Shown here one piece after another: positions 33,829-50,283 of a stretch of 64,000 bases of DNA (its first letter is position 1; each line of letters starts with the position of its first letter). The stretch is taken from NCBI GenBank assembly GCA_022825825.1, contig JAJDWA010000023.1:12707-76706 (forward strand), written 5' to 3'. This stretch comes from Candidatus Poribacteria bacterium. GTDB taxonomy: Bacteria; Poribacteria; WGA-4E; WGA-3G. The notes below the pieces were generated by a model. The model saw only the letters and a program-made list of their open reading frames with translations, was not told the origin of the DNA and searched no databases. The position numbers and the translations under genes were made by a program.

Positions 33829-34641
33829 TTAGTTCTCTTTCCAACGTTTAACAGCATCTATTTTTGTTTGTTGCCAATCTGTCCAATCTTTTTTGCCTTC
33901 ATACCGAACAACATCATGGATAGTAGCACGCGGTTGGTAAGTAATATAGTTGCCGGTATGCCACGCAAGATTTCGATAAATCATGAAATCTCCCGGGCCT
34001 AAATGTACTTGAACCGCACCGGGAAATTGCTGACAATGTTCTAAGTAAAGCCGTTCTGCCTCAACATTAGACTGGCCCTCAACAGGTTTGCGCAATGTAG
34101 GATCACCTGTTGACTGTTCTTCGCCGGGCATGTCCCACTGCCGAAGATGGCTACCCGGAACAAACCATGTGCAGGAATCCGCATAAATTGCACAGTTGAC
34201 CTGATTGAAGTGACGCAGGTCGTGCCACACTTCTGCGAGTTTTGCGTTTACAGTTTCATCACGCGCTTCAGGTGGTACTTCAACCACACCATCACGGTGC
34301 CAACCGATATGCCAAGGGTGCTCGACAGGTTCAACCAATAATCCCATAATGTCAACATGTCCATGTGTATAATCATCGCCAAGCAACTTCTGGACAGCAT
34401 CTCGCAGTTCCTGCAATTCTGTGTAATCATAAAACGGTTTCAAATCCAAATCATCGCCATAGTTTGACAACGGTTGAATCCGCTGTGTCTGTGGTCCATT
34501 AAGCTTGTGCGCTAAGTGACGTGCTTTTTCTGCTTCCCTACGTAAATCGGTAAGCAGGGCTGACGGCACAACCCCTCGAAAAACCAGAAATCCTTGTGAG
34601 AGATATTCGTTGACCATATAATCTTGAAATTGGAACGCCAT
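33829..34641 (-). CDS. phytanoyl-CoA dioxygenase (PhyH)-family Fe(II)/2-oxoglutarate oxygenase
   Basis: WHIGWHRDG (HxD), WFVPGSHL, LAWHTGNY. Confidence 0.7.
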   Translation of the reverse strand: MAFQFQDYMVNEYLSQGFLVFRGVVPSALLTDLRREAEKARHLAHKLNGPQTQRIQPLSNYGDDLDLKPFYDYTELQELRDAVQKLLGDDYTHGHVDIMGLLVEPVEHPWHIGWHRDGVVEVPPEARDETVNAKLAEVWHDLRHFNQVNCAIYADSCTWFVPGSHLRQWDMPGEEQSTGDPTLRKPVEGQSNVEAERLYLEHCQQFPGAVQVHLGPGDFMIYRNLAWHTGNYITYQPRATIHDVVRYEGKKDWTDWQQTKIDAVKRWKEN

Positions 34642-34854: not shown

Positions 34855-36048
34855 CTAAGGACGAATAACCGTGCCATCCATACGCCGCACTGGGGCCCAA
34901 CCACCGTTGAGTGGATGTTCTGGAAACGGGAATTGTGCAGCGAGTTCTTCGTTGACATCAATACCGAGTCCTGGTGCTTCATTTGCCCAAAAACAACCAT
35001 CCCGAATTTCTGGACAACCCGGAAAAACCTCTTTTGTGTTTTCACCAAATACATGCTGTTCCTGAATCCCGAAGTTATAACACGCTAAATCTAAGGCAAC
35101 GTTTGCGGCATGTCCAACTGGCGAAACATCCCCTGGCCCGTGCCATGCGGTGCGTACACCGAAGAATTCACAAAACGCTGCGAGTTTACGAGCGGGACTA
35201 ATACCACCAATCTGTGAAATATGCACCCGAATAAAATCAATAAGACGATCTTTAATAAGATGCACATACTCATTTGGATTGTTAAACAGTTCTCCCATTG
35301 CGATCGGGATGCTTGTCTGTTGGCGCATCAGTTGGAAATAATCAACATCCTCTGGCGCAAACGGGTCTTCAAGGAAAAAGAGGTTATAAGGCTCCAACCC
35401 TTTGGCAAGATTAATCGCTTGAATCGGTGGTATCCGCTCATGCACATCGTGCAGCAGCTCAACTTCGTCCCCTAATTTTGTCCGCAGATGATCGAAAAGT
35501 TTAATGACTGTCCTCACATAAGGCGTCGGTTCGAAAGCAGGAGAACTCCGCTTTCCACCGCCTGCACCATAAGTTGTATAACCGGGAATAGCAACTTGTG
35601 CACGTACATACCGATATCCTTGCTCCATATACCGCCTGACGCTGTTCTCTACCTCTTCAAAAGTTCCACCGCCTGCGTGTCCGTAAAGTGTGGCTGCTTC
35701 ACGACACTTGCCCCCAAGCAATTGGTAGACAGGCATATTCGCACGTTTACCCATAATGTCCCACAGCGCAATATCCACACCGCTCAATGCGTTGTTCAGC
35801 ACAGGCCCATTCCGCCAATACGAACTGACAAAACTTGTCTGGAAAATATCCTCTATGTTGGTCGGGTCTTTCCCTATCAAGAAAGGTTTTAGGTACTCAT
35901 CTACAGCAGTTGCAACGGCAAGTGGACGTTGTGTGAACGTAGCACAACCCACACCGTATAAGTCGGGTTCACTTGTTTCAACTTTTACAACGACAAGCCG
36001 AATCCCATCGGGCGCAGTCAGAATTGTTTTGACATCTGTTATTTTCAA
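34855..36048 (-). CDS. enolase-superfamily D-mannonate/D-gluconate dehydratase (ManD/RspA subgroup)
   Basis: MKITDVKTILTAPDGIRLVVVKVETSEPDLYGVGCATF... and about 400 aa length, typical of ManD. TTG start. Confidence 0.85.
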   Translation of the reverse strand: MKITDVKTILTAPDGIRLVVVKVETSEPDLYGVGCATFTQRPLAVATAVDEYLKPFLIGKDPTNIEDIFQTSFVSSYWRNGPVLNNALSGVDIALWDIMGKRANMPVYQLLGGKCREAATLYGHAGGGTFEEVENSVRRYMEQGYRYVRAQVAIPGYTTYGAGGGKRSSPAFEPTPYVRTVIKLFDHLRTKLGDEVELLHDVHERIPPIQAINLAKGLEPYNLFFLEDPFAPEDVDYFQLMRQQTSIPIAMGELFNNPNEYVHLIKDRLIDFIRVHISQIGGISPARKLAAFCEFFGVRTAWHGPGDVSPVGHAANVALDLACYNFGIQEQHVFGENTKEVFPGCPEIRDGCFWANEAPGLGIDVNEELAAQFPFPEHPLNGGWAPVRRMDGTVIRP

Positions 36049-36601: not shown

Positions 36602-37840
36602 ATGAACCCTAATGAAAAAATTGAAAAACTGACCTCGCTTCTCAATAAACATCATGAATATCGCGAAACCTGTCTAAACCTCATCGCTTCGGAAAATACG
36701 CCATCACCGTTAGTAGAAGAACTTTTTGACGAGCGGTTGGCGCGGCGATACGGAAATTATGCTGGAATTGAGCTTTATCAGCGGAACTATAAAGGCAACC
36801 GCTATATTGCTGAAATAGAAGCGTTCACGCAGGAATTGGCAAAAGAACTTTTTAACGTATCACACGTTGATTTCCGTCCACTTTCTGGAAACATAGCGGG
36901 AATTGCCGCTACATTCGCGCTTGCAGAGCCGGGTGATATTGCATTAGAAGTTCATAACGGCCATCGTTATGCCCATAAACTCGCTTCGTCTCCGCTTAAA
37001 GTAGACTTACAGTCAATTCCGATTCCTTGGGATGGTCTCCGATCAAACATTGACCTTCCTGCAACGATTGAACAGATTGAACAACACAAACCGAAAATCG
37101 TGAACATCGGTTCAGGTGTATTTCTCTTTCCACAACCCGTTTCGGAACTGAAAAACGCTATGCGTCAAGCAAATCCAGACTCATATCTCATTTATGACGC
37201 TGCGCACGTTATTGGACTCATAGCAGGTGGGCGGTTTCAATCGCCATTTGAAGAGGGGGCGGATGTCATCATCTCCAGCACACACAAAACGCTCGCAGGT
37301 CCGCAAGGTGGCATGATTTTAACCAACGACAAATCTATTGCAGAACGAATTGGGAAAACGTTGTATCCACTGCTGATGAGCAACCATCACTTGAGTCGAT
37401 TGCCAGCATTAGCGGGAACGTTTGTGGAGTGGATGGCGTGCGGTGCAGCACATGCAGATGCAATTGTCGCTAACGCGAAGGCTTTGGGACAGGCGTTAGC
37501 GGATCGCGATGTGCAAATGCTCGGTGCAGAACTCGGTTTCACGGAGTCGCATACGTTGATACCGATTGTAGACGTTTTTGGTGATGGAGGCGAATTAGCA
37601 AATCAATTAGAAGCATGCCATATTATTGCGGGTGCTGCGGGCTTATCTCCTGAAGTCGGCACCTCTGGACTCCGTTTCGGTGTGCAAGAGGTTACCCGAT
37701 GGGGCATGACACCAGAAGATGCACCGGATATCGCAGATTGTGTTGTTGCCGTGCTCTCAGGAGAATCGCCGGATACAGTCAAACCCAAAGTTGCGCGAGT
37801 CGCACAACGTTTTAGGACGATTCAGTTTACAGTAAAATAA
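36602..37840 (+). CDS. glyA: serine hydroxymethyltransferase
   Basis: LIASENTPSPLVEE..., PLSGN, SSTHKTLAGPQGG (PLP lysine). Confidence 0.9.
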   Translation: MNPNEKIEKLTSLLNKHHEYRETCLNLIASENTPSPLVEELFDERLARRYGNYAGIELYQRNYKGNRYIAEIEAFTQELAKELFNVSHVDFRPLSGNIAGIAATFALAEPGDIALEVHNGHRYAHKLASSPLKVDLQSIPIPWDGLRSNIDLPATIEQIEQHKPKIVNIGSGVFLFPQPVSELKNAMRQANPDSYLIYDAAHVIGLIAGGRFQSPFEEGADVIISSTHKTLAGPQGGMILTNDKSIAERIGKTLYPLLMSNHHLSRLPALAGTFVEWMACGAAHADAIVANAKALGQALADRDVQMLGAELGFTESHTLIPIVDVFGDGGELANQLEACHIIAGAAGLSPEVGTSGLRFGVQEVTRWGMTPEDAPDIADCVVAVLSGESPDTVKPKVARVAQRFRTIQFTVK

Positions 37841-37944
37841 ATGGCAATGCATATTCAACATAGCAAAAAAATTTTTGTAACGCTTTATATTATTGTAACG
37901 TTAAATATATTATAGCACTAATGTTTTATAGTTGTATAGGTTGT

Positions 37945-37970: not shown

Positions 37971-38013
37971 TACGTATTTTAAACAGTAAATAACAAGAAA
38001 AGGAATATTTACT

Positions 38014-39750
38014 ATGGAAAATAAAGCACCCGATTGGGTGAAAGTAGCTGATTTAAGCGAAGTGCCTGAGGGACAACCGAAGGCAATTAAAATGGGAGAG
38101 GGGCGTAGTATTGCCCTCTTTAATGTTGACGGCAAAATTTATGCGACTGATAATCAGTGTCCGCATATGGGCTACCCGTTAACACGAGGCACAATCCGAA
38201 ATGGCATTCTGACATGTGATTGGCACCGCCGCAGTTTTGATTTAGAGGGTGGCGGCTGTTTTCACGTTGAATGTGATGACTTGAAGGTTTTTCCGGTGGA
38301 TATCCGAGGCAATGAAATTTGGATTGAACCGGGAGATATGATCTACCGCCGCGCAGAAGAACATAAGCAACTGCTCCGAGAAGGTCTTTTAAGCGAAGAC
38401 CGATGGACAATGTCCAAAGCAATTGCCCTGTTACTTAAAGGCGGTGTACCAGAAGAAGAGGTCATGGGAGCGATTCTGGAACACGTCGCCCGACACATTC
38501 CCAGTGCTCACGGGTCAGAAGGTGGAGAAGATGTCTCGAGACTCATCAATGGACTCAGAGTTGGAAGTCGGTATGAGGGAGAGGATAGACTCATCGCTGT
38601 CACTACCGCTGCATGTTCTGCTGCAGGAGAAGCACGTCAACGGCTTGAAGTTGTACCGCTGCCTGAACCTGTCAGTTGGGAAAAGATTGAGCGATGGGTA
38701 CGTATCTTCTCCTATGAAGGACAAGCTGGTCGTATTGAGCGCTGCTTGTTTACAGCATACCACAAAGGTGATGCAGATAAATTGCGTCCATTATTGTTTG
38801 AATGTGCTGTCGAACCCAATTTTATTGATAATCCACAGATCCCGCTTTATGTAAGTTATCTTTCTGAAGTGGTTGATGAATTCGGGTGGGACCGCACTGC
38901 GGATCTGTTTTTCTATCTCGGTGCAGACCTTGTCGGACATCATCCCTCGGATCCAGAACGGTATCGCAGGGACGCGATCAATCTGATGAGAGAGATGCTA
39001 CCAACAGTTGAAAGTGCCGCGTTAGAACGAACGAATAAGTTTGACGAGGATGCTTTTGTTGAAGCACTTACCAGCGTCAATCTCGAACGTTCCTTTGAGG
39101 AGGTACAGGCAGTCATAGTTGATGGTGTCCAGTTAGATAGGGTTATCACATCACTTGTTCTACTTGCAGCGGATCGTATGGCAAACACACCTGTGAATGT
39201 AGATGCGGGTTGGTGGAACTTAACAATGGAACTCAACCTTGCGGCATCTTTGCGAAGTGCGCAACAAGTTGGTGGAAGCCTTGTCGCAGCGAAAGGGCTT
39301 TTCCACGTTGCATGGCAAATGTTCGCTGACCGTTGGATAAATATCCCTACACGACTCCTTAGCGAACCGTTGGGTGAAGAAAAACTTGATGTAGCAAATG
39401 AAGCAGAAGGTATTGAATTGATTATCGGCACAATTGAGTCACTCAATGTTCAAGATGTCGGACCGCAGGTGCTTGGATATCTAAATGCTGGCTATTCTGC
39501 TGAGAATTTACTCCAAGCCATCGGCCATTCAGTGCTATGGGATGATACCGGAAGTGAAGTTCTGCCGACATTGCGCACCGTGTTTGAAGAATGGCAGCAC
39601 GCCGAAGGGCATCCCGCGCAACCACAACTGCTGGTCGGTTTGGCACGATATGTTACAGATATCCGATCCAATACGGATAACAAATCTGCAGCTACCACAG
39701 CGATGAATTTTGCTGAAGGCAGAACTACAATTGAGGTCTTTGAGGAGTAA
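38014..39750 (+). CDS. Rieske [2Fe-2S] domain protein fused to an uncharacterised C-terminal domain of about 470 aa (paralog 1)
   Basis: CPHMGYPL-x-CDWH Rieske ligands (CxH-x16-CxxH) within aa 49-71. I do not recognise any family in the remainder. Confidence 0.8.
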   Translation: MENKAPDWVKVADLSEVPEGQPKAIKMGEGRSIALFNVDGKIYATDNQCPHMGYPLTRGTIRNGILTCDWHRRSFDLEGGGCFHVECDDLKVFPVDIRGNEIWIEPGDMIYRRAEEHKQLLREGLLSEDRWTMSKAIALLLKGGVPEEEVMGAILEHVARHIPSAHGSEGGEDVSRLINGLRVGSRYEGEDRLIAVTTAACSAAGEARQRLEVVPLPEPVSWEKIERWVRIFSYEGQAGRIERCLFTAYHKGDADKLRPLLFECAVEPNFIDNPQIPLYVSYLSEVVDEFGWDRTADLFFYLGADLVGHHPSDPERYRRDAINLMREMLPTVESAALERTNKFDEDAFVEALTSVNLERSFEEVQAVIVDGVQLDRVITSLVLLAADRMANTPVNVDAGWWNLTMELNLAASLRSAQQVGGSLVAAKGLFHVAWQMFADRWINIPTRLLSEPLGEEKLDVANEAEGIELIIGTIESLNVQDVGPQVLGYLNAGYSAENLLQAIGHSVLWDDTGSEVLPTLRTVFEEWQHAEGHPAQPQLLVGLARYVTDIRSNTDNKSAATTAMNFAEGRTTIEVFEE

Positions 39751-39756
39751 TCTCTA

Positions 39757-41037
39757 ATGAGCCAAAATGCTTGGCACCTGCAGCGAACGGCATTTATTGA
39801 TGCAGTGAGAAACGGGGACGCGAATCGAGTCAAATCCTTGTTGGCTGATAACAGTGAACTTAATGCTTACATTGATGAACCTTGGTTCTCCTTTGATGCG
39901 CCGGCAATTGTGTTTGCCGCTGGCGAGGGTAATCGCCCGCTTGTGGAGGTGTTGCTTGATGCGGGGGCAAACATTGATGCCAAAAGTTCTTGGTGGGCAG
40001 GTGGCACTTCGGCACTGCAGCACGCGTCCGGTTCAATGCTCGGATACAACAGGGAATTAGCTGCGTATCTAATTGAACGCGGTGCAACGATTGACGCACA
40101 TTCAGCAGCGGGTTTGGATATGGTGGATACACTTGAGGCGTTGATTCGTGAAAACCCGGATGTTGTTAATGCACCTGGATGCGATAGCATGTCTCCGCTT
40201 CATTTCTCAGCGACACCCCGAATTGCAGAACTGCTCCTCAAGCACGGCGCGGACATAAATCTACGCGATCGGGACCATAACGGAACTGCAGCGCAATGGA
40301 CGATGCGGAGACGGCCTGAAGTCTGTAAATACCTCCTTGACCAAGGTGCCGAAGCGGACGTTGTCCTCTATTGCGCGATGGGTGACGTTGAACGAGCAAG
40401 GGCAGAATTTCTGAAAAACCGTGAACTCCTCACGCTCAGGATAAATATGAAAGCGCCTGAAGGTTTCGTTATCCCATCGTCAAAGGTTAACGATGAGCAA
40501 ACAGAGGTTGTTCCTGGTGGACATGTGTATGTTTATCAGGTCGGACCGACCATGCCGCTGCTTGAGATAGCACTTCAGTCTAAGCAGCCAGCAATCGTTG
40601 ATCTGCTCATTGACTTAGGTTATGAGATCAACTTGCGAGACTGGTATGTACTGGTTGGACAGGGACCGAAACGGTTTGATGCTTTGGTGAAAGGATTCCT
40701 TGCTAAAGGTCGGGATATTAACGCACTTCAAAAGCATCGGCGTGGCATGTGGTCGCCTCTACATTGGGTCGCACAACGCGGTTTGACAAACGGTATCGTC
40801 TGTTTATTGGCAAACGGGGCTGACCCGAATGTGACCGATGACAAAGGGCAAACACCGCTACACTTCATTGCACAGAAGGGTGTCGGCAAAAACCAAGCAG
40901 AGTCACTAATTGAACATGGCGCTGATCTCAATGCACGTGATGATGCTGGACACACACCGCTTGATTACGCTAAGAAAGCAAAACGTAAATCGCTTGCGGA
41001 TTTCTTGATAAATTTAGGAGCGAAAAGCGGCAAGTAA
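39757..41037 (+). CDS. ankyrin-repeat protein
   Basis: GAGGAG RBS inside the end of the previous gene. Repeats such as SPLHFSATPRIAELLLKHGADINLRD and TPLHFIAQKG...LIEHGADLNARD. Confidence 0.85.
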   Translation: MSQNAWHLQRTAFIDAVRNGDANRVKSLLADNSELNAYIDEPWFSFDAPAIVFAAGEGNRPLVEVLLDAGANIDAKSSWWAGGTSALQHASGSMLGYNRELAAYLIERGATIDAHSAAGLDMVDTLEALIRENPDVVNAPGCDSMSPLHFSATPRIAELLLKHGADINLRDRDHNGTAAQWTMRRRPEVCKYLLDQGAEADVVLYCAMGDVERARAEFLKNRELLTLRINMKAPEGFVIPSSKVNDEQTEVVPGGHVYVYQVGPTMPLLEIALQSKQPAIVDLLIDLGYEINLRDWYVLVGQGPKRFDALVKGFLAKGRDINALQKHRRGMWSPLHWVAQRGLTNGIVCLLANGADPNVTDDKGQTPLHFIAQKGVGKNQAESLIEHGADLNARDDAGHTPLDYAKKAKRKSLADFLINLGAKSGK

Positions 41038-41102
41038 CCGACAACTGCTAAATTGCCATTTCCAACACTTTTTGGCTAATTAAGTGTTAAGAGGATTCAA
41101 GC

Positions 41103-41663
41103 ATGCAATACGATGACAATTCACCATTCTATAAATTGCTTGCTACGAAATATAAGCAAGAAGAGGAAGCTCTTGGTATTACTATCGTTGAAACGTATCC
41201 AGAAGTAGCGAAATTGGCGTGGCCTGGTCCTGATGAAAAAGGACAACCATTTGTCAAAGGCAGTACAGCGCTGCATTACGCTGCCAATGATGGGAAAGAT
41301 CAACTTGTTCTTAAGCTTCTTGAATATGGTTCGGATGTTAATGCAAGTGATGCAAACTGGTACCGATCTGTGCTATCTTGGGCTGCTAATAATGCATGGA
41401 CTTCAACGATACGCTTACTTCTTGCAAATGGAGCGGATCCTACGTCTTTAGATGCAGTTCATGCCGCTGCGTTTGGTGGTTCTTCATGCGGTGAAGGGCA
41501 AGAACAAGAATACGCAGAAACACTGCAAATCCTGATTGATGCGGGTGCTGATATGAACGATCGACGCCATTATCAGAACCAAACGCCACTTGGGATTGCT
41601 TTAAAAAGCGGAAACAGAGGTGCGATTGCGTATTTGCGCAGCATCGGTGCCGCAGAAGTATAA
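41103..41663 (+). CDS. ankyrin-repeat protein
   Basis: TALHYAANDGKDQLVLKLLEYGSDVNASD and LLANGADPTSLD. Confidence 0.85.
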   Translation: MQYDDNSPFYKLLATKYKQEEEALGITIVETYPEVAKLAWPGPDEKGQPFVKGSTALHYAANDGKDQLVLKLLEYGSDVNASDANWYRSVLSWAANNAWTSTIRLLLANGADPTSLDAVHAAAFGGSSCGEGQEQEYAETLQILIDAGADMNDRRHYQNQTPLGIALKSGNRGAIAYLRSIGAAEV

Positions 41664-41697
41664 AATTTGCCGAATATGTAGGTTGGGTAGAACGGCG

Positions 41698-41870
41698 TGA
41701 AACTCCTAACTGTCAATTTAGCGTGAGAATAATCTCAAACCCGGTAGGTGCGGTTTCCTAACCGCACCTACCATTCTGAATGTCCGAGGCGCAATGAATT
41801 GCGATTAAACGCGTTTTTTCCTAAGTTGACAGTTACGGTTAGAACGGCGTGAAACCTAACAAATTGAATT
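41698..41870. mobile_element. MITE-like insertion: direct repeats, then 10-bp terminal inverted repeats, around a family A hairpin
   Basis: TAGAACGGCGTGAAAC occurs at 41698-41713 and 41850-41865. taactgtcaa (41717-41726) pairs with ttgacagtta (41836-41845). Core hairpin ggtaggtgcgg-TTTCCTAA-ccgcacctacc at 41753-41782. Confidence 0.4.
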
Positions 41871-41940
41871 TATGAGATACAAATTAGTCTTCGGTAAAGG
41901 CAATCGCCTCCTACCGTTGATGTAATAGGAGAAGTATAGA

Positions 41941-43689
41941 ATGTTATCAGAAAATGGAAATTTCGTAAAAGTCGCTGCCCGAAGTGATATAGCAGAGGGA
42001 AAACCGAGGGCAGTCAGAGTTGAAGGACATAGTATTGCCCTCTTTGAGCATGAAGGCAATGTTTACGCCACAGATAACCAGTGTCCACACATGGGCTATC
42101 CGCTCATAAGAGGGCATGTCAAAAGAGGTGTTTTGTCGTGCGACTGGCACGGTTGGAGTTACGACATGGAAGGTGGCGGATGTTTCACCGGTGGTTGTGA
42201 TGACCTCGCTACGTTTCCCGTTGACGTTCGCAATGGTGATATCTATGTAGATGTCGGCAGTGGTGGAAAGAAACGGGATGACGCACATTTTCTTTTGTTG
42301 AAAGAGGGGTTATTTTCGCATGACAGTTGGACGCTTTCCAAAGCTATTGCCATTATGTTAGCAAAAGGCGTTTCAGAAGATGAAACGTTGGAGATAATGG
42401 TTAAACACATGGTGCGGCATATTTCGACAGCCGAAGGTGCGCGAAGCGGCGGCGGGCGTATCGCAACACTGATGCACGGAATTAAGGTCGCACACATGTA
42501 TGAATCCGATGATCGACTTATTCCGCTGATGATGGCGGCGACACATGCTGCTGGTGGACACAATGATCGTCCTGACCGTCAACCGCTTCCACCGCCAGTT
42601 GACTGGGAAAAACTTGAAAACTGGATTAGAGTGTTCACCGCCGATAAAGAATGGGAAGGTATAGAAAAATGCCTTATCACAGCAAGGCAGTTAGGTGGGC
42701 ATGAAGACAAATTTATCCCGCTCTTCCTCGATTGCGCGTCCCAGTGGTTCTTTCTCAGCCACTCCAGAAACTTAATTGACCTTTGCCATTTGGCTGAAGT
42801 ACTTGAGAAATGGGGATGGGAGATGACTGGGGAATTAGTCTGTAACCTCGGCGCAAAGATACTTGGGCAAGGCCGTGGCAGACCCGGTGAACGTCTCCGT
42901 GAAGCACTCCAAAAACTGGAAGAAATTGATCATATCTTTGATAACCTTCCGCAGGAAAAATCACCTGACGCAGACGTTGATTTTGACGAAGATGAATTAT
43001 CTGCCGATCTGGTCAGTGGGGATATAGACACAATTTTTGATGCTATAACGAAAGTGCTCACAGCAGGTGCTTCCATTGACAAGATCGCTACAACCATGGT
43101 GATGACATCTGCTGATAGGATGGCAAGAACACCAGTTAACATGAGTCCCGGTTGGTGGGATTTACAAGAAGAGATGGAATTAGCGGCGAACATTAGAAAG
43201 GTCCTCCGTTTTGGTGGCACTAAAATAGCTTCGAAGGCACTCTACCACTGTGGATGGAGATTTTATTCTAACCGCTGGTTAAACATTCGTCCTCAACCGA
43301 TTTCAGAAGCGAGAACGACTTCAACCACTAAAGTCCTTGATGAAGATATGGCAATTGACGCAATCGTTGATGGAATCGAATCTGTCCGAATCCAAGAAAT
43401 TGGTCGACGCACTCGCGAATATCTTAACTCAGGGTGCTCCGCTGAACGATTATTGGCTGAGATGGGGCAATGTATCCTCAAGGATGATAACGGTGATTCT
43501 CTCCTCAGCACGATTCACATTGTGGATAGAGAGTGGCATTACTGTGAGAAGCATCCTGCAAGGAATCAACTGATTGTTGGGTTAGCCCGATGGGCAACGG
43601 ATGTTCGCAGAAACGCGGGGAACGATTCCGCCGTGCAGACTGCACACCGTTTCGCAAAAGGCGAAACCGCTACGGAACTCTACGAATAA
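41941..43689 (+). CDS. Rieske [2Fe-2S] domain protein fused to an uncharacterised C-terminal domain of about 470 aa (paralog 2)
   Basis: CPHMGYPL...CDWHGWSY. Collinear with 38014-39750 over the full length, with shared blocks ADRMA(N/R)TPVN, GWW(N/D)L and LVGLAR(Y/W)xTD(I/V)R. Confidence 0.8.
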   Translation: MLSENGNFVKVAARSDIAEGKPRAVRVEGHSIALFEHEGNVYATDNQCPHMGYPLIRGHVKRGVLSCDWHGWSYDMEGGGCFTGGCDDLATFPVDVRNGDIYVDVGSGGKKRDDAHFLLLKEGLFSHDSWTLSKAIAIMLAKGVSEDETLEIMVKHMVRHISTAEGARSGGGRIATLMHGIKVAHMYESDDRLIPLMMAATHAAGGHNDRPDRQPLPPPVDWEKLENWIRVFTADKEWEGIEKCLITARQLGGHEDKFIPLFLDCASQWFFLSHSRNLIDLCHLAEVLEKWGWEMTGELVCNLGAKILGQGRGRPGERLREALQKLEEIDHIFDNLPQEKSPDADVDFDEDELSADLVSGDIDTIFDAITKVLTAGASIDKIATTMVMTSADRMARTPVNMSPGWWDLQEEMELAANIRKVLRFGGTKIASKALYHCGWRFYSNRWLNIRPQPISEARTTSTTKVLDEDMAIDAIVDGIESVRIQEIGRRTREYLNSGCSAERLLAEMGQCILKDDNGDSLLSTIHIVDREWHYCEKHPARNQLIVGLARWATDVRRNAGNDSAVQTAHRFAKGETATELYE

Positions 43690-43707
43690 CACAAGTAATT
43701 CACTATT

Positions 43708-43743
43708 GTAGGGCGAGGTTTTGTGCCTCTGCCCTACTTTTTT
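43708..43743 (+). terminator. rho-independent terminator (family B unit co-opted)
   Basis: gtagggcgagg-ttttgtg-cctctgccctac followed by a run of 6 T. Confidence 0.7.
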
Positions 43744-43748
43744 ATTAA

Positions 43749-44774
43749 ATGAAAAAAATCGTTCTATCCCTTCTTTTTAGTCTATTATGTTTGTCAGCTC
43801 ATGGGGCATCCTTGGAGTTCGTCTTTCAACTCGGCGAAAAACAGAACCCACGACTTGATAGATTACTCCCTGATGTTCCACGATATTTGGCTTTTAACAA
43901 GGATAGCACAAAATTCATTGCTAAAGGAATGGGTGGCATCTTAGTAGAGTGGGATATTCACTCACGCCAAAAGCGAGAAGTCGGAAATATCCAAGCAAAG
44001 CGGTTGTTTGTTTATGCTGCTGGCACTAATCAACTTTTAATTCAGAAAGAGGATAATGTCACAATTCTCAATCTTGGAGGTAGCAATGAAACACAAGTAA
44101 CAAAGGGGCAGTATGAAAGTGGGAGTCTATCAGCAAATGGCGACTTGGTAGTGTTGTCAAAAGGCGAAAAAGAGTTTGAATTTTGGCAACTCGTTAAGAA
44201 GCGTCCGAGGCAGGTGAAGACTTTTCAGACAACTTTGCCGATTAGGAATGGTCTTACGCTTTCTAACGATGGTAAATATATTGCATCTGCCGAAGGCAGT
44301 TACCGTGATGGTGAAGGACATCGCACAATTGTTGAGATTTGGGATGCAAACGATGAAAAGCAACCTATGCGTGTTTTCAACACCGGTGAAATTCTTGGTG
44401 TATGGAACTTAGTATTTTCAGATGGCAGCGAGATGCTTGCTGTTGACACGCAACTCAACGCTAAATCTGGAGTTCGCGTATGGGATGTCCGAACAGGCGC
44501 ACAACTCCTTAATAAATCAGGGTTTGAGGCATACTGGACACGCGCCCTCGCTTTCGCACCCAGTGAAAAATTAAATTCGACAGAATACCTTGCCTCTGGA
44601 GACGAGAAAGGAAATCTCCGAATATGGAAAATTCCCGGTGGTGAATCAACAATTTGGGAAACCTATCCAACCGGTATTCAAGCATTAGCCTTCTCACCCA
44701 ATGGAGAGTATTTGGCAGTCGCATTATGGGATACCACAATTCAAATTTTAAGGTGGAAAAGAGATGAACAATAA
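43749..44774 (+). CDS. secreted WD40-like beta-propeller protein
   Basis: Signal peptide MKKIVLSLLFSLLCLSAHG. WD-like blades (VEIWDAN, VRVWDVRTG, NLRIWKI, LAFSPNGEYLAVALWD). Confidence 0.75.
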   Translation: MKKIVLSLLFSLLCLSAHGASLEFVFQLGEKQNPRLDRLLPDVPRYLAFNKDSTKFIAKGMGGILVEWDIHSRQKREVGNIQAKRLFVYAAGTNQLLIQKEDNVTILNLGGSNETQVTKGQYESGSLSANGDLVVLSKGEKEFEFWQLVKKRPRQVKTFQTTLPIRNGLTLSNDGKYIASAEGSYRDGEGHRTIVEIWDANDEKQPMRVFNTGEILGVWNLVFSDGSEMLAVDTQLNAKSGVRVWDVRTGAQLLNKSGFEAYWTRALAFAPSEKLNSTEYLASGDEKGNLRIWKIPGGESTIWETYPTGIQALAFSPNGEYLAVALWDTTIQILRWKRDEQ

Positions 44775-45270
44775 TAATGAATCTTACACAGATGAAAAGG
44801 GACGCACCCGATGGCACGTAAATGATGAAATAGCGTTGAGATTAATGGAACTGCATACTTTCCTGATCATTGCAGATTACCCAGAGGATCATGCTTCACG
44901 ATATCCTCGTTTGGCACATTCCATCTCTCGTTTTCCAGAATCCATCGCGGATCTTGTCGATCAAGGAAGGTTAATAGAAGAAATTGGCGGGGTTGGCGAA
45001 ATAGTTGAGACTATCATCACTGAATATCTACAAACTGGAACATGCTCAAAAATCCAAGACTACGCAGGTGACATTCCGCAGACAATTGCTGAACTTGTGC
45101 CTGTTCCTGGTCTTGGCGCAAAAACGATTAAACGCTTATATGAGGATATTGAAGTTGTTAGTCTCGCTTCCCTTCGAACAGCAATTGACGAAAGTAAACT
45201 CAAAGGATTCAAAGGCATCGGCAAGAAAACGTTAGATAAAATTGAGGAATATCTTGATTCAAATTTGTAG
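44764..45270 (+). CDS. palm-less PolX-like protein: 8-kDa (lyase-like) plus HhH fingers domains only
   Basis: Collinear with residues ~1-145 of bacterial PolX (NDEIA..LMEL...SRY..LA....L..IGGVG..I..II.EY...GT.S...........ELV.VPGLGAKTIKRLYE......SL..A.....LKGFKGIGKKT..KI). It stops before any palm/NT motif. Overlaps the WD40 gene by 11 nt. Confidence 0.65.
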   Translation: MNNNNESYTDEKGRTRWHVNDEIALRLMELHTFLIIADYPEDHASRYPRLAHSISRFPESIADLVDQGRLIEEIGGVGEIVETIITEYLQTGTCSKIQDYAGDIPQTIAELVPVPGLGAKTIKRLYEDIEVVSLASLRTAIDESKLKGFKGIGKKTLDKIEEYLDSNL

Positions 45271-45285
45271 TAGATATATCTCAAA

Positions 45286-45768
45286 ATGGGTGTAAATTAT
45301 GGCAATTCACGAACAACTGGTGAAATGGTTGATGGTAAAAAGCACGGATATTGGATTACCTACTATGCAAATGGACTAAAACGTAGTGAAGGAAACTATG
45401 TTCATGGGAAAAAAGATGGACGTTGGATTCAATACCACAAAAATGGCAACACATATACTGAAGCCTTCTTCCGTGATGATAAGCATGAAGGCACTTACAC
45501 ATCTTATCATGAAAATGGCACCCTCGGAATGGTCGGGACTTATCCTAAACATGAAGGCAAATCTTATGATGGGAAAAAGGAAGGGGCATGGCAATGGTAC
45601 GAAGACGATGGAGAAACGGTCTGGCGTATCATCACCTATAAGAAAGGTGGTGCCCGCGCAAAACCGGATGAATATCCGCTGGGAACGTGCCACGGTTGTG
45701 GCGAAGGCAGACGTTTAAAGTGGGGTGATAGCTGTCCAAAGTGTGATGCAGAGATTGATCAGTTATAA
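45286..45768 (+). CDS. MORN-variant (YwqK-type) repeat protein with a C-terminal Zn ribbon, paralog 1
   Basis: GKKHGYWITYYANGLKRSEGNYVHGKKDGRWIQYHKNGN... repeats. CHGCGEGRRLKWGDSCPKC. Confidence 0.8.
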   Translation: MGVNYGNSRTTGEMVDGKKHGYWITYYANGLKRSEGNYVHGKKDGRWIQYHKNGNTYTEAFFRDDKHEGTYTSYHENGTLGMVGTYPKHEGKSYDGKKEGAWQWYEDDGETVWRIITYKKGGARAKPDEYPLGTCHGCGEGRRLKWGDSCPKCDAEIDQL

Positions 45769-45788: not shown

Positions 45789-46913
45789 ATGAAAAATAAG
45801 AAAGCATTAGGTGAAAGTTTAATTGCAGCAGCAAAAGCTGGTGATATGGATCAAGTCCGTGAACTTGTGGAGAACGGTGCTGATCCGAACTACAGCTGGA
45901 TTCCACCTTTCATGTGGGCATATTTTGAAAGGAACGTGGATATTGCTAAATACTTAATAGAACAGGGCGGCAACGTCAATCACGATGTCTTTTCAGAAGG
46001 TGTCCTGTTAAGTTTCGCTGCAAGAGATGGTGAGTTAAGGTTCTGTGAGTACTTAATTGATGTCGATGCAGAAGTCAATCACGGCATGCCGAAAGGCGGT
46101 GAGACGCCTTTACACAACGCTGCAGAAGCAAATCAACTCAGTGCAATAGATATGTTAATTGAGCATGGTGCAGAAATCAATCAGCGCTCAAAAAAAGGCG
46201 AGTCCGAATTGGAGTTCGGACCGATGGATGGCGAAACCCCGCTGCATATTGCGGCTGCATTGGCGTCAGTTGGCGTTATTCGATTCCTAATTAGCCATGG
46301 TGCCGACAAAACAATCCGAAACTTTTCTGGGATGAGTGCCTACGACTTTGCTGTTAAACATGAACGACCTGAAGAAATCCTTAATATCCTCTATTTTGAA
46401 GAGGAGGCATCACAAGAAAACGAATCTGCTGCTGATGATAAAGAGCGTTCTGGTGAACTGACTAACGATGAAATCGCACAAAAACTGATGGAGCTTCATA
46501 CCATTCTGATTGTTGCTGATTACCCGGAAGACCACGCGTCGCGCTACCCTCGTTTAGCGTACACTATTTCTCGTATGGAGGAATCTGTAGCGGAACTGGC
46601 AACGCAAGGAAAGTTACAAGAGGCAATTCCGGGTGTTGGAGACATCGTCTCAACCATCATCACTGAATATGTAGAAACCGGAACGTGCTCAAAATTACAA
46701 GAGTACGCAAGTGACGTTCCTCAGACAATTGTTGAACTCATCCCTATCCCCGGGCTCGGTCCTAAAACAATTAAACTTCTGTATCAGGAGGCAGGCATTG
46801 ACAGTCTTCTATCGCTCCGAACGGCAATTGACGAAGGTAAGCTAAAAGGGATCAAAGGCATTGGAAAGAAAACTATAGAAAAATTTGAGGAATACCTTAA
46901 TGAAAATTTGTAA
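45789..46913 (+). CDS. ankyrin repeats fused to a palm-less PolX-like 8-kDa/HhH module
   Basis: N-terminal half is ANK (TPLHNAAEANQLSAIDMLIEHGAEINQR...). The C-terminal 150 aa are about 70% identical by eye to the 44764-45270 product. Confidence 0.8.
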   Translation: MKNKKALGESLIAAAKAGDMDQVRELVENGADPNYSWIPPFMWAYFERNVDIAKYLIEQGGNVNHDVFSEGVLLSFAARDGELRFCEYLIDVDAEVNHGMPKGGETPLHNAAEANQLSAIDMLIEHGAEINQRSKKGESELEFGPMDGETPLHIAAALASVGVIRFLISHGADKTIRNFSGMSAYDFAVKHERPEEILNILYFEEEASQENESAADDKERSGELTNDEIAQKLMELHTILIVADYPEDHASRYPRLAYTISRMEESVAELATQGKLQEAIPGVGDIVSTIITEYVETGTCSKLQEYASDVPQTIVELIPIPGLGPKTIKLLYQEAGIDSLLSLRTAIDEGKLKGIKGIGKKTIEKFEEYLNENL

Positions 46914-46967: not shown

Positions 46968-47438
46968 ATGCCAAGTAAACTTGATACGGGTGAGATGGTT
47001 GATGGTCAAAAGCACGGGTATTGGATTACCTATTATGCAAGCGGGATAAAGCGGAGTGAAGGCAACTATATTCATGGCAAAAAGGATGGACCTTGGATCA
47101 ATTATCACAAAAATGGGAACATATCGGGTGAAGCCTCCTTTCGCGATGGAAAATATGAGGGTCTCTGTGTCACTTATTATGAAAACGGGAATCTTAGATC
47201 CAGTGGTGCCTATCCTAAGCATGAGGGTAAATCTTACGATGGCAAAAAGGAAGGACCATTTTATGGTTATGAAGAAGACGGTAAAACGGTATGGCTAATC
47301 GTAACCTATAAAAAGGGTGGTAGTCGTGCAAAACCGGATGAGTATCCCCTCGGAACGTGCGATGTTTGTGGTGAAGGTAGACGTTTAAGTTGGGGTGATA
47401 GTTGTCCAAAGTGTGGCACAGAAATTGATGAGTCATAA
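46968..47438 (+). CDS. MORN-variant repeat protein with a C-terminal Zn ribbon, paralog 2
   Basis: Collinear with paralog 1. CDVCGEGRRLSWGDSCPKC. Confidence 0.8.
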   Translation: MPSKLDTGEMVDGQKHGYWITYYASGIKRSEGNYIHGKKDGPWINYHKNGNISGEASFRDGKYEGLCVTYYENGNLRSSGAYPKHEGKSYDGKKEGPFYGYEEDGKTVWLIVTYKKGGSRAKPDEYPLGTCDVCGEGRRLSWGDSCPKCGTEIDES

Positions 47439-47453
47439 GCAAGAGGTGAAATT

Positions 47454-47918
47454 ATGGCAAGTTCACGAGATACAGGCGAAATGATTGATGGTAAAAAGCA
47501 TGGGTATTGGATTACCTATTACGCGAGCGGATTAAAACGTAGCGAAGGCAACTTTGTCCATGGCAAAAAGGATGGGAAATGGATTCTCTATCACAAGAAT
47601 GGAAATATATCCAGCGTGGCTTACTTTCGAGATAATAAGTACGAAGGCGAGTATATATGCTATCATGAAAATGGGAATCGCAAATGGGGCGGTCCCTACA
47701 AAATGCATGATGGCACTTCTTCCGACGGTAGAAAAGAAGGTGTCTGGCACTGTTGGGAAGAGGATGGCGAAACGGTATGGCGTATCATCACCTATAAGAA
47801 AGGCGGTGCCCGCGCAAAACCCGATGAACATCCGTTTGGTGAATGTCCCGGTTGCGGTGAAGGCAGACGTTCCAATTGGAAAAATAACTGTCCACGATGC
47901 GGAACTGAACTTGACTAA
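47454..47918 (+). CDS. MORN-variant repeat protein with a C-terminal Zn ribbon, paralog 3
   Basis: Collinear with paralogs 1 and 2. CPGCGEGRRSNWKNNCPRC. Confidence 0.8.
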   Translation: MASSRDTGEMIDGKKHGYWITYYASGLKRSEGNFVHGKKDGKWILYHKNGNISSVAYFRDNKYEGEYICYHENGNRKWGGPYKMHDGTSSDGRKEGVWHCWEEDGETVWRIITYKKGGARAKPDEHPFGECPGCGEGRRSNWKNNCPRCGTELD

Positions 47919-47964: not shown

Positions 47965-47996
47965 GGTGAGGCCTTTGTGCCTCACCATTTTCATTT
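47965..47996 (+). terminator. probable rho-independent terminator (family B-like unit)
   Basis: ggtgaggc-ctttgt-gcctcacc followed by attttcattt. Confidence 0.55.
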
Positions 47997-48087: not shown

Positions 48088-48116
48088 TTGACAAATATAA
48101 TTCAAAAGCGTATAAT
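48088..48116 (+). promoter_or_regulatory. consensus sigma70 promoter upstream of the rhodanese gene
   Basis: TTGACA (48088-48093), exactly 17 nt, TATAAT (48111-48116). Confidence 0.6.
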
Positions 48117-48208: not shown

Positions 48209-49057
48209 ATGGCTGATTACGCTAATCCTGACGTTTTGGTAAGTACGGAGTGGGTTGCCGAGCATGGTAGTGATGCTGGCATCCGCCTACTTGAAGTTGA
48301 TGTGGACACATCTGCCTATGGAGAAGGACATATTGCAGGGGCAGTCGGCTTGAATTGGCAAACGCAGCTGTGCGACCAAATCCGACGCGATATTCTCACG
48401 AAAGATCAATTTGAGGCACTCTGCAACGACAGTGGCATTGCTAACGACACCACCGTTATCTTTTATGGTGATAACAACAACTGGTTCGCCACGTACGCAT
48501 TGTGGCAATTCCGTTACTATGAGCATGATGAGAGTCTGCTGAAGGTTATGAATGGTGGTCGTCAAAAATGGATTGATGAAGGCAGAGAACTCGTTACAGA
48601 TGTTCCTTCTTATGCTGCCACTGGGTATCAGGCGAAATTCCCGGATGACAACGTCCGCTCAACAAAGGACAATATCCTACCCACGCTGGAGCAAGGTGTT
48701 ATCAATCTCGTTGACGTGCGTTCACCCGCAGAATTTTCGGGTGAAGTGATTGCACCGCCGGGCATGAGTGAAACCGCACAACGTGGTGGGCATATCCCGG
48801 GCGCAGCGAATATTCCGTGGGCCACTGCGGTGGCGGAAGACGGCACCTTTAAGTCTTATGACGAATTGGCATCCATATACGGTGGTGCAGGTGTTGACGC
48901 CAGTAAAGAGACCATCGCTTACTGCCGAATCGGCGAACGTTCATCGCATACATGGTTTGTGCTAAAATACCTACTCGGTTATGAGAAGGTTCGCAACTAT
49001 GATGGCAGTTGGACAGAGTGGGGCAATTTGGTCGGCGCGCCCATAGCACGCGATTAA
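48209..49057 (+). CDS. thiosulfate sulfurtransferase (two-domain rhodanese)
   Basis: Active-site loop CRIGERSS (CRxGxR[ST], thiosulfate-type). Tandem rhodanese domains, 282 aa. Confidence 0.9.
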   Translation: MADYANPDVLVSTEWVAEHGSDAGIRLLEVDVDTSAYGEGHIAGAVGLNWQTQLCDQIRRDILTKDQFEALCNDSGIANDTTVIFYGDNNNWFATYALWQFRYYEHDESLLKVMNGGRQKWIDEGRELVTDVPSYAATGYQAKFPDDNVRSTKDNILPTLEQGVINLVDVRSPAEFSGEVIAPPGMSETAQRGGHIPGAANIPWATAVAEDGTFKSYDELASIYGGAGVDASKETIAYCRIGERSSHTWFVLKYLLGYEKVRNYDGSWTEWGNLVGAPIARD

Positions 49058-49449: not shown

Positions 49450-50283
49450 ATGTACTACCTGACACGGCAGGCCGCCTTTGAGGCGTCTCATTACAATCGG
49501 ATTCCCGAATTGAGCGATGCCGAAAACTTTGAACTGTTCGGTGCCGCAGCGAATCCAAATAGCCACGGGCACAACTATGTGCTTGAGGTGATGGTCAAAG
49601 GGGATTTAGATGTCGATGACGGGATGGTCATTAACTTGACGACTTTAGATGCGTTGTTGAAAACAGAAGTGATTGCGAATTATGATCACAAGCACCTGAA
49701 CAAACAACACCCCATTTTTGCTAAGAATCCACTGCTACAACCTACATGTGAAAACATTACCATTGAAATATGGCAACGACTCGTTCCATCCCTTCCCGAT
49801 GGACTACTCCATCGGGTTCGACTCTATGAAAGTTCATCACGATTTGCTGATTACTATGGAGAAGATTTGATGGTTTATCTCACCAAAGTTTATGAGTTCA
49901 GTGCAGCACACCGTTTACATAGCCAGGTGCTTAGCGATGAGGAAAACCGAGAAATTTTCGGGAAATGTAACAATCCTGCTGGGCATGGGCATAATTACGT
50001 ACTTGAAGTCACCGTCCGAGGTGATGTAGATGCAAAAACTGGGCTGGTCGCGGGTTTAAATCTGCTTGACGAGGTAGTCGAAAAACAGGTTTATGCACGT
50101 TTCGATTACAAACACCTAAATCTTGATACACCAGAATTTGAGAAACTCAATCCGACATCCGAAAACTTCGTAAAAGTACTTTGGGATGTATTAGAACCGA
50201 ATCTGCGTCCGGTGGTCTTACACCGCCTGCGCTTGCGAGAAACACCCAAAAATCATTTTGATTACTATGGAGAATCCTCTTAA
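49450..50283 (+). CDS. tandem-domain 6-pyruvoyl-tetrahydropterin / 6-carboxy-tetrahydropterin synthase (PTPS/QueD family, duplicated)
   Basis: Two PTPS units. Unit 1: FEASHYN...FGAAANPNSHGHNYVLEVMV. Unit 2: FSAAHRLHS...FGKCNNPAGHGHNYVLEVTV. Only the second keeps the catalytic Cys. Confidence 0.85.
   Translation: MYYLTRQAAFEASHYNRIPELSDAENFELFGAAANPNSHGHNYVLEVMVKGDLDVDDGMVINLTTLDALLKTEVIANYDHKHLNKQHPIFAKNPLLQPTCENITIEIWQRLVPSLPDGLLHRVRLYESSSRFADYYGEDLMVYLTKVYEFSAAHRLHSQVLSDEENREIFGKCNNPAGHGHNYVLEVTVRGDVDAKTGLVAGLNLLDEVVEKQVYARFDYKHLNLDTPEFEKLNPTSENFVKVLWDVLEPNLRPVVLHRLRLRETPKNHFDYYGESS

Follow-up and report, generated by a model that had tools for sequence, protein, structure and literature searches.

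Two genes in a stretch of 64,000 nucleotides from a Candidatus Poribacteria bacterium (GenBank assembly GCA_022825825.1, contig JAJDWA010000023.1, positions 12,707 to 76,706 of the forward strand), hereafter the window, encode proteins of about 580 residues, P1 and P2. Both begin with a Rieske domain, continue into a long region which an earlier reading of the sequence alone had been unable to place in any family, and lie among genes for ankyrin-repeat (ANK) and other eukaryote-like repeat proteins. What is this region, and what might a Rieske protein do with it in such company? Our answer, tentative when taken as a whole, is a redox- or O2-responsive sensing or electron-transfer module, in which a pair of Rieske proteins of BTG13-like ancestry would work with an ANK adaptor. 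The features on which it is built are the following (AF2, AlphaFold2 model).

38014..39750, forward strand: P1, 578 aa, N-terminal Rieske [2Fe-2S] domain and 22-helix C-terminal domain (open reading frame, Pfam, AF2)
38032..38328, forward strand: Rieske domain of P1, aa 7-105 (Pfam, Foldseek)
38341..39747, forward strand: helical domain of P1, aa 110-578 (AF2, Foldseek)
41941..43689, forward strand: P2, 582 aa, Rieske domain at aa 8-104 and helical domain (open reading frame, Pfam)
38257-38274 (P1, aa 82-87) and 42184-42201 (P2), forward strand: CxxxxC pair within the Rieske domain

Two paralogs with complete Rieske domains

P1 and P2 align collinearly from end to end with 42% identity and 64% positives (BLASTP of the full-length proteins, E 7e-174), in agreement with the two collinear proteins of about 580 residues and roughly 40% identity that the sequence-only reading had described. 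They are true paralogs with complete Rieske modules. The Rieske family PF00355 matches at about residues 7-93 with E 3.1e-19 in P1 and 3e-20 in P2 (69.1 and 72.4 bits, Pfam gathering cut-off 20.3), and the Rieske_2/NirD-like family PF13806 also matches both proteins within residues 7-105. The cluster ligands of P1 are C49-P-H51-x16-C68-D-W-H71, the same boxes occur in P2, and the CxH...CxxH ligands are invariant in an alignment of 40 sequences and in all full-length representatives whose N-terminus is intact. The complete NirD-like module, CPH-x16-CDWH, that had been claimed for both proteins is therefore present, with Pfam scores above cut-off and all cluster ligands in place.

Residues 7-105 are nearest, in both sequence and structure, to the Rieske-type ferredoxins (BphF, NdoA-type, CarAc, T4moC) and to NirD. 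Among PDB sequences the nearest are Rieske-type ferredoxins (E 1e-14), and Foldseek aligns this part with Rieske ferredoxin structures at E 2e-6 and TMt 0.75-0.87. Nevertheless, these relatives are free-standing proteins of about 105 residues, whereas P1 and P2 have 578 and 582. Identity with NirD was ruled out on the same ground of size and because P1 and P2 reach only 51.2 and 48.1 bits against the NCBIfam equivalog TIGR02378, whose cut-off is 74.65; no NirB-type family was found among the genes scanned from 33.8 to 50.3 kb.

The C-terminal domain resembles BTG13-type dioxygenases in its predicted fold

Past residue 105, neither P1 nor P2 has a match to Ring_hydroxyl_A or to any other Pfam family, even at E<=10, and residues 110-578 have none in NCBIfam. 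Searches of PDB sequences with the C-terminal domain (phmmer and hmmsearch, using single sequences and two profiles, one of them built from 40 sequences) gave no match, and the PDB oxygenase matches of P1 and P2 cover the Rieske part only. The full-length AF2 model of P1 has high confidence (pLDDT 88, pTM 0.83), and all of its Foldseek matches are Rieske proteins. Since the N-terminal domain dominated this search, we modelled the C-terminal domain separately. The model of residues 110-578 (pLDDT 89.5, pTM 0.90) is all-helical, with 22 helices, and a single PDB match stands out from the rest: BruN (8yxs_A), with E 1.5e-2 and probability 1.00, over 431 aligned columns of the 446-residue chain, at TM 0.37/0.39 and rmsd 9.1. 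All remaining matches have a probability of <=0.13, TM <=0.17 and rmsd of about 20 Å. This tail holds TPR/RRNPP-like receptors (AimR, Rap, P58IPK) and MFS/CitS transporters, both of which we discarded.

By predicted fold, the C-terminal domain thus most resembles the DUF4243/BTG13-type non-heme iron dioxygenases, while lying outside every curated sequence family. The earlier verdict that it could not be placed stands for Pfam, NCBIfam and PDB sequences, but not for the fold. That it is not the catalytic domain of a ring-hydroxylating oxygenase was correct, the AF2 model being all-helical and Ring_hydroxyl_A unmatched, and the Hx4H...D iron motif is indeed found in neither paralog. The alignment of P1 and P2 contains all the conserved blocks that had been picked out by eye (EHVARH/KHMVRH, ADRMAxTPVN, GWWxL and LVGLARxxTDxR).

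Distant relatives carry a putative set of iron ligands that P1 and P2 lack

The iron of BruN is bound by H63, H166, H308, H386 and the carboxylated K389 (PMC11575538), and that of PaD, which has 22 α-helices, by H63, H166, H317, H394 and K397 (PMC11371914; review PMC12173810); both enzymes are all-alpha (PMC11575538, PMC11371914, PMC12173810). We aligned P1 and P2 with distant representatives, and the family falls into two clades, a ligand-less clade of 17 clusters that includes P1 and P2, and a His-rich clade. Two members of the His-rich clade, P0381 and P0389, have four His and a Lys (H171/H279/H416/H542/K545 and H166/H271/H414/H529/K532, respectively). When the Rieske domain of about 105 residues is subtracted, the residues of P0389 fall at 61/166/309/424/427: the first three are at most two residues away from the ligands of BruN and the HxxK spacing is equal, and a loop insertion shifts the fourth. 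A variant of the four His and Lys occurs in about 20 other clusters. It consists of H2, a Lys at +7, H3 and H4, plus a fifth His close to the C-terminal end, and the lysine of HxxK is replaced by Gln. Among the proteins in these clusters are those of Nostoc carneum (BAY35606.1), Priestia megaterium (WP_177564172.1) and Halorussus halophilus (WP_158058992.1), which come from plasmid records. The His-rich relatives belong to cyanobacteria, haloarchaea, Priestia and Paraburkholderia and bear no annotation but "Rieske protein"; a tblastn search of plasmids with one of them returned only more members of the same Rieske family.

At the five ancestral ligand columns, P1 has E172, Q275, M405, E515 and P518, and P2 has G172, R276, E410, S520 and S523. 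An hhalign comparison of the two clades (probability 100, E 1.6e-82, 567 columns) confirmed the column assignment for P1, and none of the five 4-His-1-Lys ligands is found in the ligand-less clade. A match of the C-terminal domain to a characterised enzyme family, which would have spoken against its novelty, was therefore obtained by half: the predicted fold is DUF4243-like, but P1 and P2 lack all five ligands and, because every ancestral ligand is absent, are not ordinary DUF4243/BTG13 members.

The fold match and the collinear ligand pattern, taken together, make common ancestry of the family's C-terminal domain with the BTG13-type enzymes probable. The family is probably a fusion of a Rieske domain with a BTG13-like domain that had not been described before, and its His-rich members probably work as self-contained oxygenases, with the Rieske cluster supplying electrons to a BTG13-like iron.

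The fusion also appears old. An exhaustive HMMER scan with the C-terminal domain alone against 1.84 billion cluster representatives gave 197 clusters at E<=1e-3, so that this domain is rare, and nearly every full-length match again carries an N-terminal Rieske domain, which indicates an old and stable fusion. Repeating the homolog search with a divergent profile mostly returned Poribacteria sequences and added two further distant proteins. The orthologous groups of P1 and P2 each comprise more than 700 proteins at E<=1e-3, and both groups are found on the same contigs. P1 orthologs span 61-99% identity, the upper end being reached in a chromosome-level Poribacteria metagenome-assembled genome (OZ241980.1). 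The orthologs in other phyla are about 62% identical to P1, and hence nearer to it than P2 is (42%), which places the duplication of P1 and P2 before the spread to these phyla. Public annotations of the family are just "Rieske (2Fe-2S) protein" or "nitrite reductase/ring-hydroxylating ferredoxin subunit".

Conserved residues of the ligand-less clade

Fourteen residues are at least 80% conserved in the 17 representatives of this clade: D129, K135, H161, R210, E242, R243, R388, W400, R414, R440, W441, D511, E526 and D549. H161 is present in 17/17, H166 in 13/17 and H157 in 9/17. The conserved His pair that had been proposed is thus upheld for H161, which is invariant in the clade, but not for H157. 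D549 is next to a column that holds a conserved His in the His-rich clade, and both clades have D511. The pocket seems to have been kept while its chemistry changed.

The Rieske domain of the P1/P2 clade has in addition a CxxxxC pair after box II, which is not a feature of Rieske ferredoxins or NirD. In the motif GGC82-x4-C87-DDL, C82 is found in 17/17 and C87 in 16/17 of the ligand-less clade, compared with 6/22 and 0/22 of the His-rich clade. Residues 81-90 form the lowest-confidence stretch of the modelled P1 Rieske domain (pLDDT 60, AF2).

The P1-(ANK)-P2 cassette

Two ANK genes separate P1 from P2.

39742..39747, forward strand: GAGGAG ribosome-binding site for ANK1, within the last codons of P1 (sequence)
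39757..41037, forward strand: ANK1, ankyrin-repeat protein of 426 aa without a signal peptide (Pfam Ank_2, E 3.8e-36)
41103..41663, forward strand: ANK2, ankyrin-repeat protein of 186 aa (Pfam)

Ank_2 scores are 124 bits for ANK1 and 70.6 bits for ANK2 (cut-off 27.3). The stop codon of P1 and the ATG of ANK1 are 6 nt apart, and the gap and the ribosome-binding site are both as the sequence-only reading had given them.

We examined the synteny by tblastn of the window proteins against 86 loci, divided into a close clade (P1 identity >=81%) and a distant clade (61-65%); the order of P1 and P2 was counted only at loci with at least 4.5 kb of sequence. P2 lies downstream of P1 in 63/63 close and 7/8 distant loci (70/71 overall). 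An ortholog of ANK1, 55-90% identical, adjoins P1 in 68/72 close loci and in 4/10 distant ones, over the whole 61-99% range of P1 identity. Among the close loci it is downstream of P1 in 53 and upstream in 15, showing that the cluster was retained despite rearrangement. ANK2 is sporadic and restricted to a subset of close relatives. In three loci of Acidobacteriota and Latescibacterota (L083, L084, L086), no ANK gene stands beside P1; P2 follows directly in L083 and L084, and a short opposite-strand reading frame lies between them in L086. In L005/L006 (= L079), from a relative at 61% identity, P1 and P2 are separated by a gene that encodes a fusion of a GNAT acetyltransferase with ANK repeats (L005 12262-13578). 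It is not orthologous to ANK1, which suggests that an ANK protein was recruited independently to the same slot. A WD40 gene comes next after P2 in 54/62 close loci and in 0/5 distant ones.

According to these counts, the conserved unit is P1 with P2, together with an ANK partner in Poribacteria. The sequence-only reading had each paralog followed by its own repeat genes, which amounts to two wirings; synteny shows instead a single P1-(ANK)-P2 cassette. Its proposal of a protein repeatedly wired to scaffolds was overstated as well, since a single ANK partner is conserved and the WD40, HhH and MORN genes are limited to the sponge-associated clade. The ANK link itself is not a peculiarity of this genome, being conserved well beyond it.

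The ANK, WD40 and MORN genes of this locus are typical of repeat-rich Poribacteria genomes and their sponge-symbiont eukaryote-like repeat proteins. ANK1, however, differs from secreted host-interaction effectors: the absence of a signal peptide, the translational coupling to a redox protein and the synteny over deep divergence make it look like a dedicated intracellular partner.

The GC content of the P1-ANK-P2 block (38001-44000) is 0.47, compared with 0.42 in the flanks (36-38 kb and 44-46 kb) and about 0.40 across most of the window from 6 to 28 kb, and GC skew is positive over the block.

Signalling domains among the relatives

Several relatives are fused to, or lie beside, signalling proteins. 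P0331 is a family member whose C-terminus is fused to an adenylate/guanylate cyclase, and a divergent MerR gene lies upstream of it (L089 789-2993). In P0340 (L090 1519-4050), an extracytoplasmic function (ECF) sigma factor precedes the Rieske and helical domains, and the H2 ligand is replaced by Glu; a second, ligand-complete family member is found 1 kb downstream (L090 5107-6885). An ECF sigma gene also follows P2 in L005/L006, and a cluster of histidine-kinase, response-regulator and Ser-Thr-kinase genes adjoins P0277.

Possible functions of P1 and P2

These hints are the reason why we favour sensing or electron transfer. P1 and P2 would be the two subunits of a conserved cytoplasmic pair of Rieske proteins, probably forming a heteromer, and their 22-helix domain would descend from the fold of the DUF4243/BTG13 'atypical' non-heme iron dioxygenases. 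The helical domain of the older branches keeps four His and a Lys collinear with the iron site of BTG13, BruN and PaD. In the P1/P2 clade all five ligands are replaced while the Rieske ligands stay invariant, and for this reason we read the two proteins as a derived form that is presumably no longer of BTG13 type. The Rieske cluster would be the working redox centre, and the helical domain, which has a conserved pocket rich in Asp and Arg, may now serve to bind a ligand or partner (D511, D549, R388, R414, R440). ANK1, translationally coupled to P1, would bind as a dedicated adaptor. The likeliest job of such an assembly is redox- or O2-responsive signalling or electron hand-over, and not ring cleavage.

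Several points weigh against this proposal. Heteromer formation and ANK1 binding are read from gene order only. The signalling fusions belong to the His-rich clade and not to that of P1 and P2, and most relatives in cultured organisms stand alone, or beside short-chain dehydrogenases/reductases or unrelated genes. The link to DUF4243 is one Foldseek match with a modest TM; BTG13 (7Y3W) and PaD (8Z4Q/8Z4S) are not among the Foldseek top 50, PF14027 matches neither P1, P2 nor eight distant relatives (hmmscan, E<=10), and phmmer and hmmsearch gave no match to 8YXS, 7Y3W or 8Z4Q. Finally, P1 and P2 have a set of invariant polar residues (H117, H157, H161, H431, H533, D511, E526, D549 and C244) that could form a different catalytic metal site.

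The main rival explanation starts from these residues. P1 and P2 may still be oxygenases or oxidoreductases whose mononuclear metal site has moved to new ligands in the same pocket, the candidates being H161, H157/H166, H431, H533, D511, E526 and D549. The Rieske cluster would then reduce this metal site, possibly across a P1-P2 interface as in the alpha3 Rieske oxygenases, and ANK1 would be an assembly or targeting factor. The strong conservation of P1 orthologs (61-99%), with many invariant His, Asp and Glu in the helical domain, would fit such a site, as would the position of D549 beside the conserved-His column and the presence of D511 in both clades. Genes for small-molecule enzymes are also occasional neighbours: L001 and L003 have a VOC/glyoxalase gene immediately upstream, L082 has PhyH, L083 and L086 have an alpha/beta hydrolase, and the window has an SHMT-like gene. 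Nevertheless, not one of the five ancestral ligands is left in either paralog, H161 is the only His invariant across the ligand-less clade, and the upstream neighbours vary by lineage, with no conserved pathway context. On balance we regard a relocated catalytic site as less likely than the sensing or electron-transfer reading.

Quite improbable, in our view, is that the helical domain has a novel all-alpha fold without relation to BruN and matches it by chance, which would leave a Rieske ferredoxin with a scaffold and no oxygenase ancestry. The low TM (just 0.37-0.39) and the E of 1.5e-2 would fit a chance match, and the missing sequence and profile matches to PF14027 or any PDB chain and the absence of the other BTG13-family structures from the Foldseek top 50 agree with it. 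However, BruN is the only match with a probability of 1.00 and spans the whole domain, the C-terminal model and a BTG13-family structure (PaD, PMC11371914) both have 22 helices, and the four His and HxxK of P0381 and P0389, at most two residues from the first three ligands of BruN, are hard to obtain by chance.

A more elaborate proposal is that a new Cys2-His2 site at the interface of the Rieske and helical domains (C82, C87, H161 and either H157 or H166) replaced the lost 4-His-1-Lys site. It would serve as a second metal centre or as a thiol/disulfide switch beside the [2Fe-2S] cluster, which the C82/C87 loop would cover. An oxygenase ancestor would thereby have become a redox or O2 sensor heteromer that signals through its ankyrin partner, and the His-rich relatives, with a BTG13-type iron, would constitute a novel Rieske oxygenase class. 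We consider this proposal improbable.

Least probable of all is that the ANK, WD40, HhH and MORN genes are ordinary sponge-symbiont effector genes that are adjacent through their abundance and without functional wiring: although the confinement of the WD40/HhH/MORN genes to the sponge-associated clade, the signal peptide in the WD40 protein but not in P1 or P2, and the sporadic ANK2 and non-orthologous GNAT-ANK protein of L005 agree with it, it fails for ANK1, which is translationally coupled to P1 with no strong forward-strand terminator before 47965, and whose orthologs remain beside P1 at all levels of P1 divergence, including the 15 relocated loci.

Comparison with known systems

P1 and P2 share features with two enzyme groups. 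The enzymes of the DUF4243/Questin_oxidase family PF14027 (BTG13 7Y3W, BruN 8YXS, PaD 8Z4Q, GedK, AflY, OzmD) are all-alpha and of about 450 residues, like the C-terminal domain of P1 and P2, but they show no detectable sequence or profile similarity to these proteins, which are without all five iron ligands. The known DUF4243 enzymes are also stand-alone, with no Rieske domain, and a separate NADPH reductase makes their hydroquinone substrate. The alpha subunits of Rieske oxygenases (carbazole 1,9a-dioxygenase, dicamba demethylase) share the layout of P1 and P2, an N-terminal Rieske domain, which is homologous, followed by a larger C-terminal domain. This C-terminal domain, however, is alpha/beta, START/Bet v1-like and binds iron through two His and a carboxylate, whereas that of P1 and P2 is all-helical. 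Identity with such alpha subunits was therefore rejected, the fold being wrong and the 2-His-1-carboxylate motif absent.

Our literature search found no paper naming both "DUF4243" and "Rieske". The family probably combines two known modules in a new way, and P1 and P2 are a further derived form of it, ligand-less, duplicated and with an ankyrin partner. Its members carry no annotation beyond "Rieske (2Fe-2S) protein", and four fifths of their length has neither a Pfam nor an NCBIfam model. Should the His-rich members prove active, they would form an architecturally new class of Rieske oxygenases that bring their own electron donor for the unusual 4-His-1-carboxy-Lys iron. Culturable hosts of family members include Priestia megaterium (on plasmids), Nostoc, Gloeothece PCC 7822 and Halorussus. 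P1 and P2 look like an enzyme scaffold that lost its metal site, kept its redox cofactor, was duplicated and gained an ankyrin partner, which makes them a testable example of enzyme-to-sensor or pseudoenzyme evolution. ANK1 provides at least one sponge-symbiont ankyrin protein with an intracellular, operon-defined context, and this context cautions against taking every "eukaryote-like" repeat gene as a host-directed effector.

Downstream and upstream genes

The genes after P2 and the signals on both sides of the locus are listed below.

37884..37913, forward strand: weak promoter-like hexamers (9/12 matches) in the AT-rich spacer of 173 nt that precedes P1
43749..44774, forward strand: WD40 beta-propeller protein with the N-terminal signal-peptide-like sequence MKKIVLSLLFSLLCLSAHGAS (Pfam, sequence)
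44764-45270, forward strand: HhH protein, HHH_8 and HHH_5 (Pfam)
45286-45768, forward strand: MORN/Zn-ribbon protein (Pfam)
45789-46913, forward strand: ANK and HhH protein (Pfam)
46968-47438, forward strand: MORN protein (Pfam)
47454-47918, forward strand: MORN protein (Pfam)
47965..47986, forward strand: intrinsic-terminator-like hairpin, 8-bp stem with 6 GC pairs and a T tail

The ANK, ANK, WD40, HhH and MORN neighbours named in the sequence-only reading were all recovered with Pfam. The WD40/HhH/MORN genes occur in the sponge clade only and are an addition specific to that lineage. A signal-peptide-like start is present in the WD40 protein but in none of P1, P2, ANK1 and ANK2. The end of the WD40 gene and the beginning of the HhH gene share 11 nt. 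An HhH gene followed by a gene for a MORN_2 protein of about 155 aa, with a zinc-ribbon-like CxxC...CxxC tail, forms a two-gene module that is repeated between 44764 and 47918; there are three MORN paralogs and two HhH genes, one of them fused to ANK repeats, and the copy number differs among Poribacteria genomes.

The hairpin at 47965-47986, after the last MORN gene, is the only strong forward-strand terminator between P1 and the next unit, and the arrangement is compatible with a single long transcription unit from P1 to the last MORN gene. Promoter-like sites are no more frequent in this region than in shuffled sequence.

Upstream of P1 lies a divergent SHMT-like gene (36602-37840) for a pyridoxal phosphate enzyme, whose only Pfam match is SHMT (E 4.7e-36) and which occupies this position in most Poribacteria loci with P1 identity of at least 81%. 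In more distant relatives, a glyoxalase/VOC, PhyH or alpha/beta-hydrolase gene takes the same slot. With upstream genes that vary in this way by lineage (SHMT-like, glyoxalase, PhyH, alpha/beta hydrolase), no conserved metabolic pathway context was found. Further upstream, on the reverse strand, are a PhyH-like dioxygenase gene (33829-34641), PhyH being also found beside P1 in L082, and a gene of the mandelate racemase/enolase superfamily (34855-36048).

After the terminator, a perfect sigma-70 consensus promoter, TTGACA-17-TATAAT (48088-48116), precedes a tandem-rhodanese gene (48209-49057), and the single reading frame at 49450-50283 encodes two tandem 6-pyruvoyl-tetrahydropterin synthase (PTPS/QueD-like) domains.

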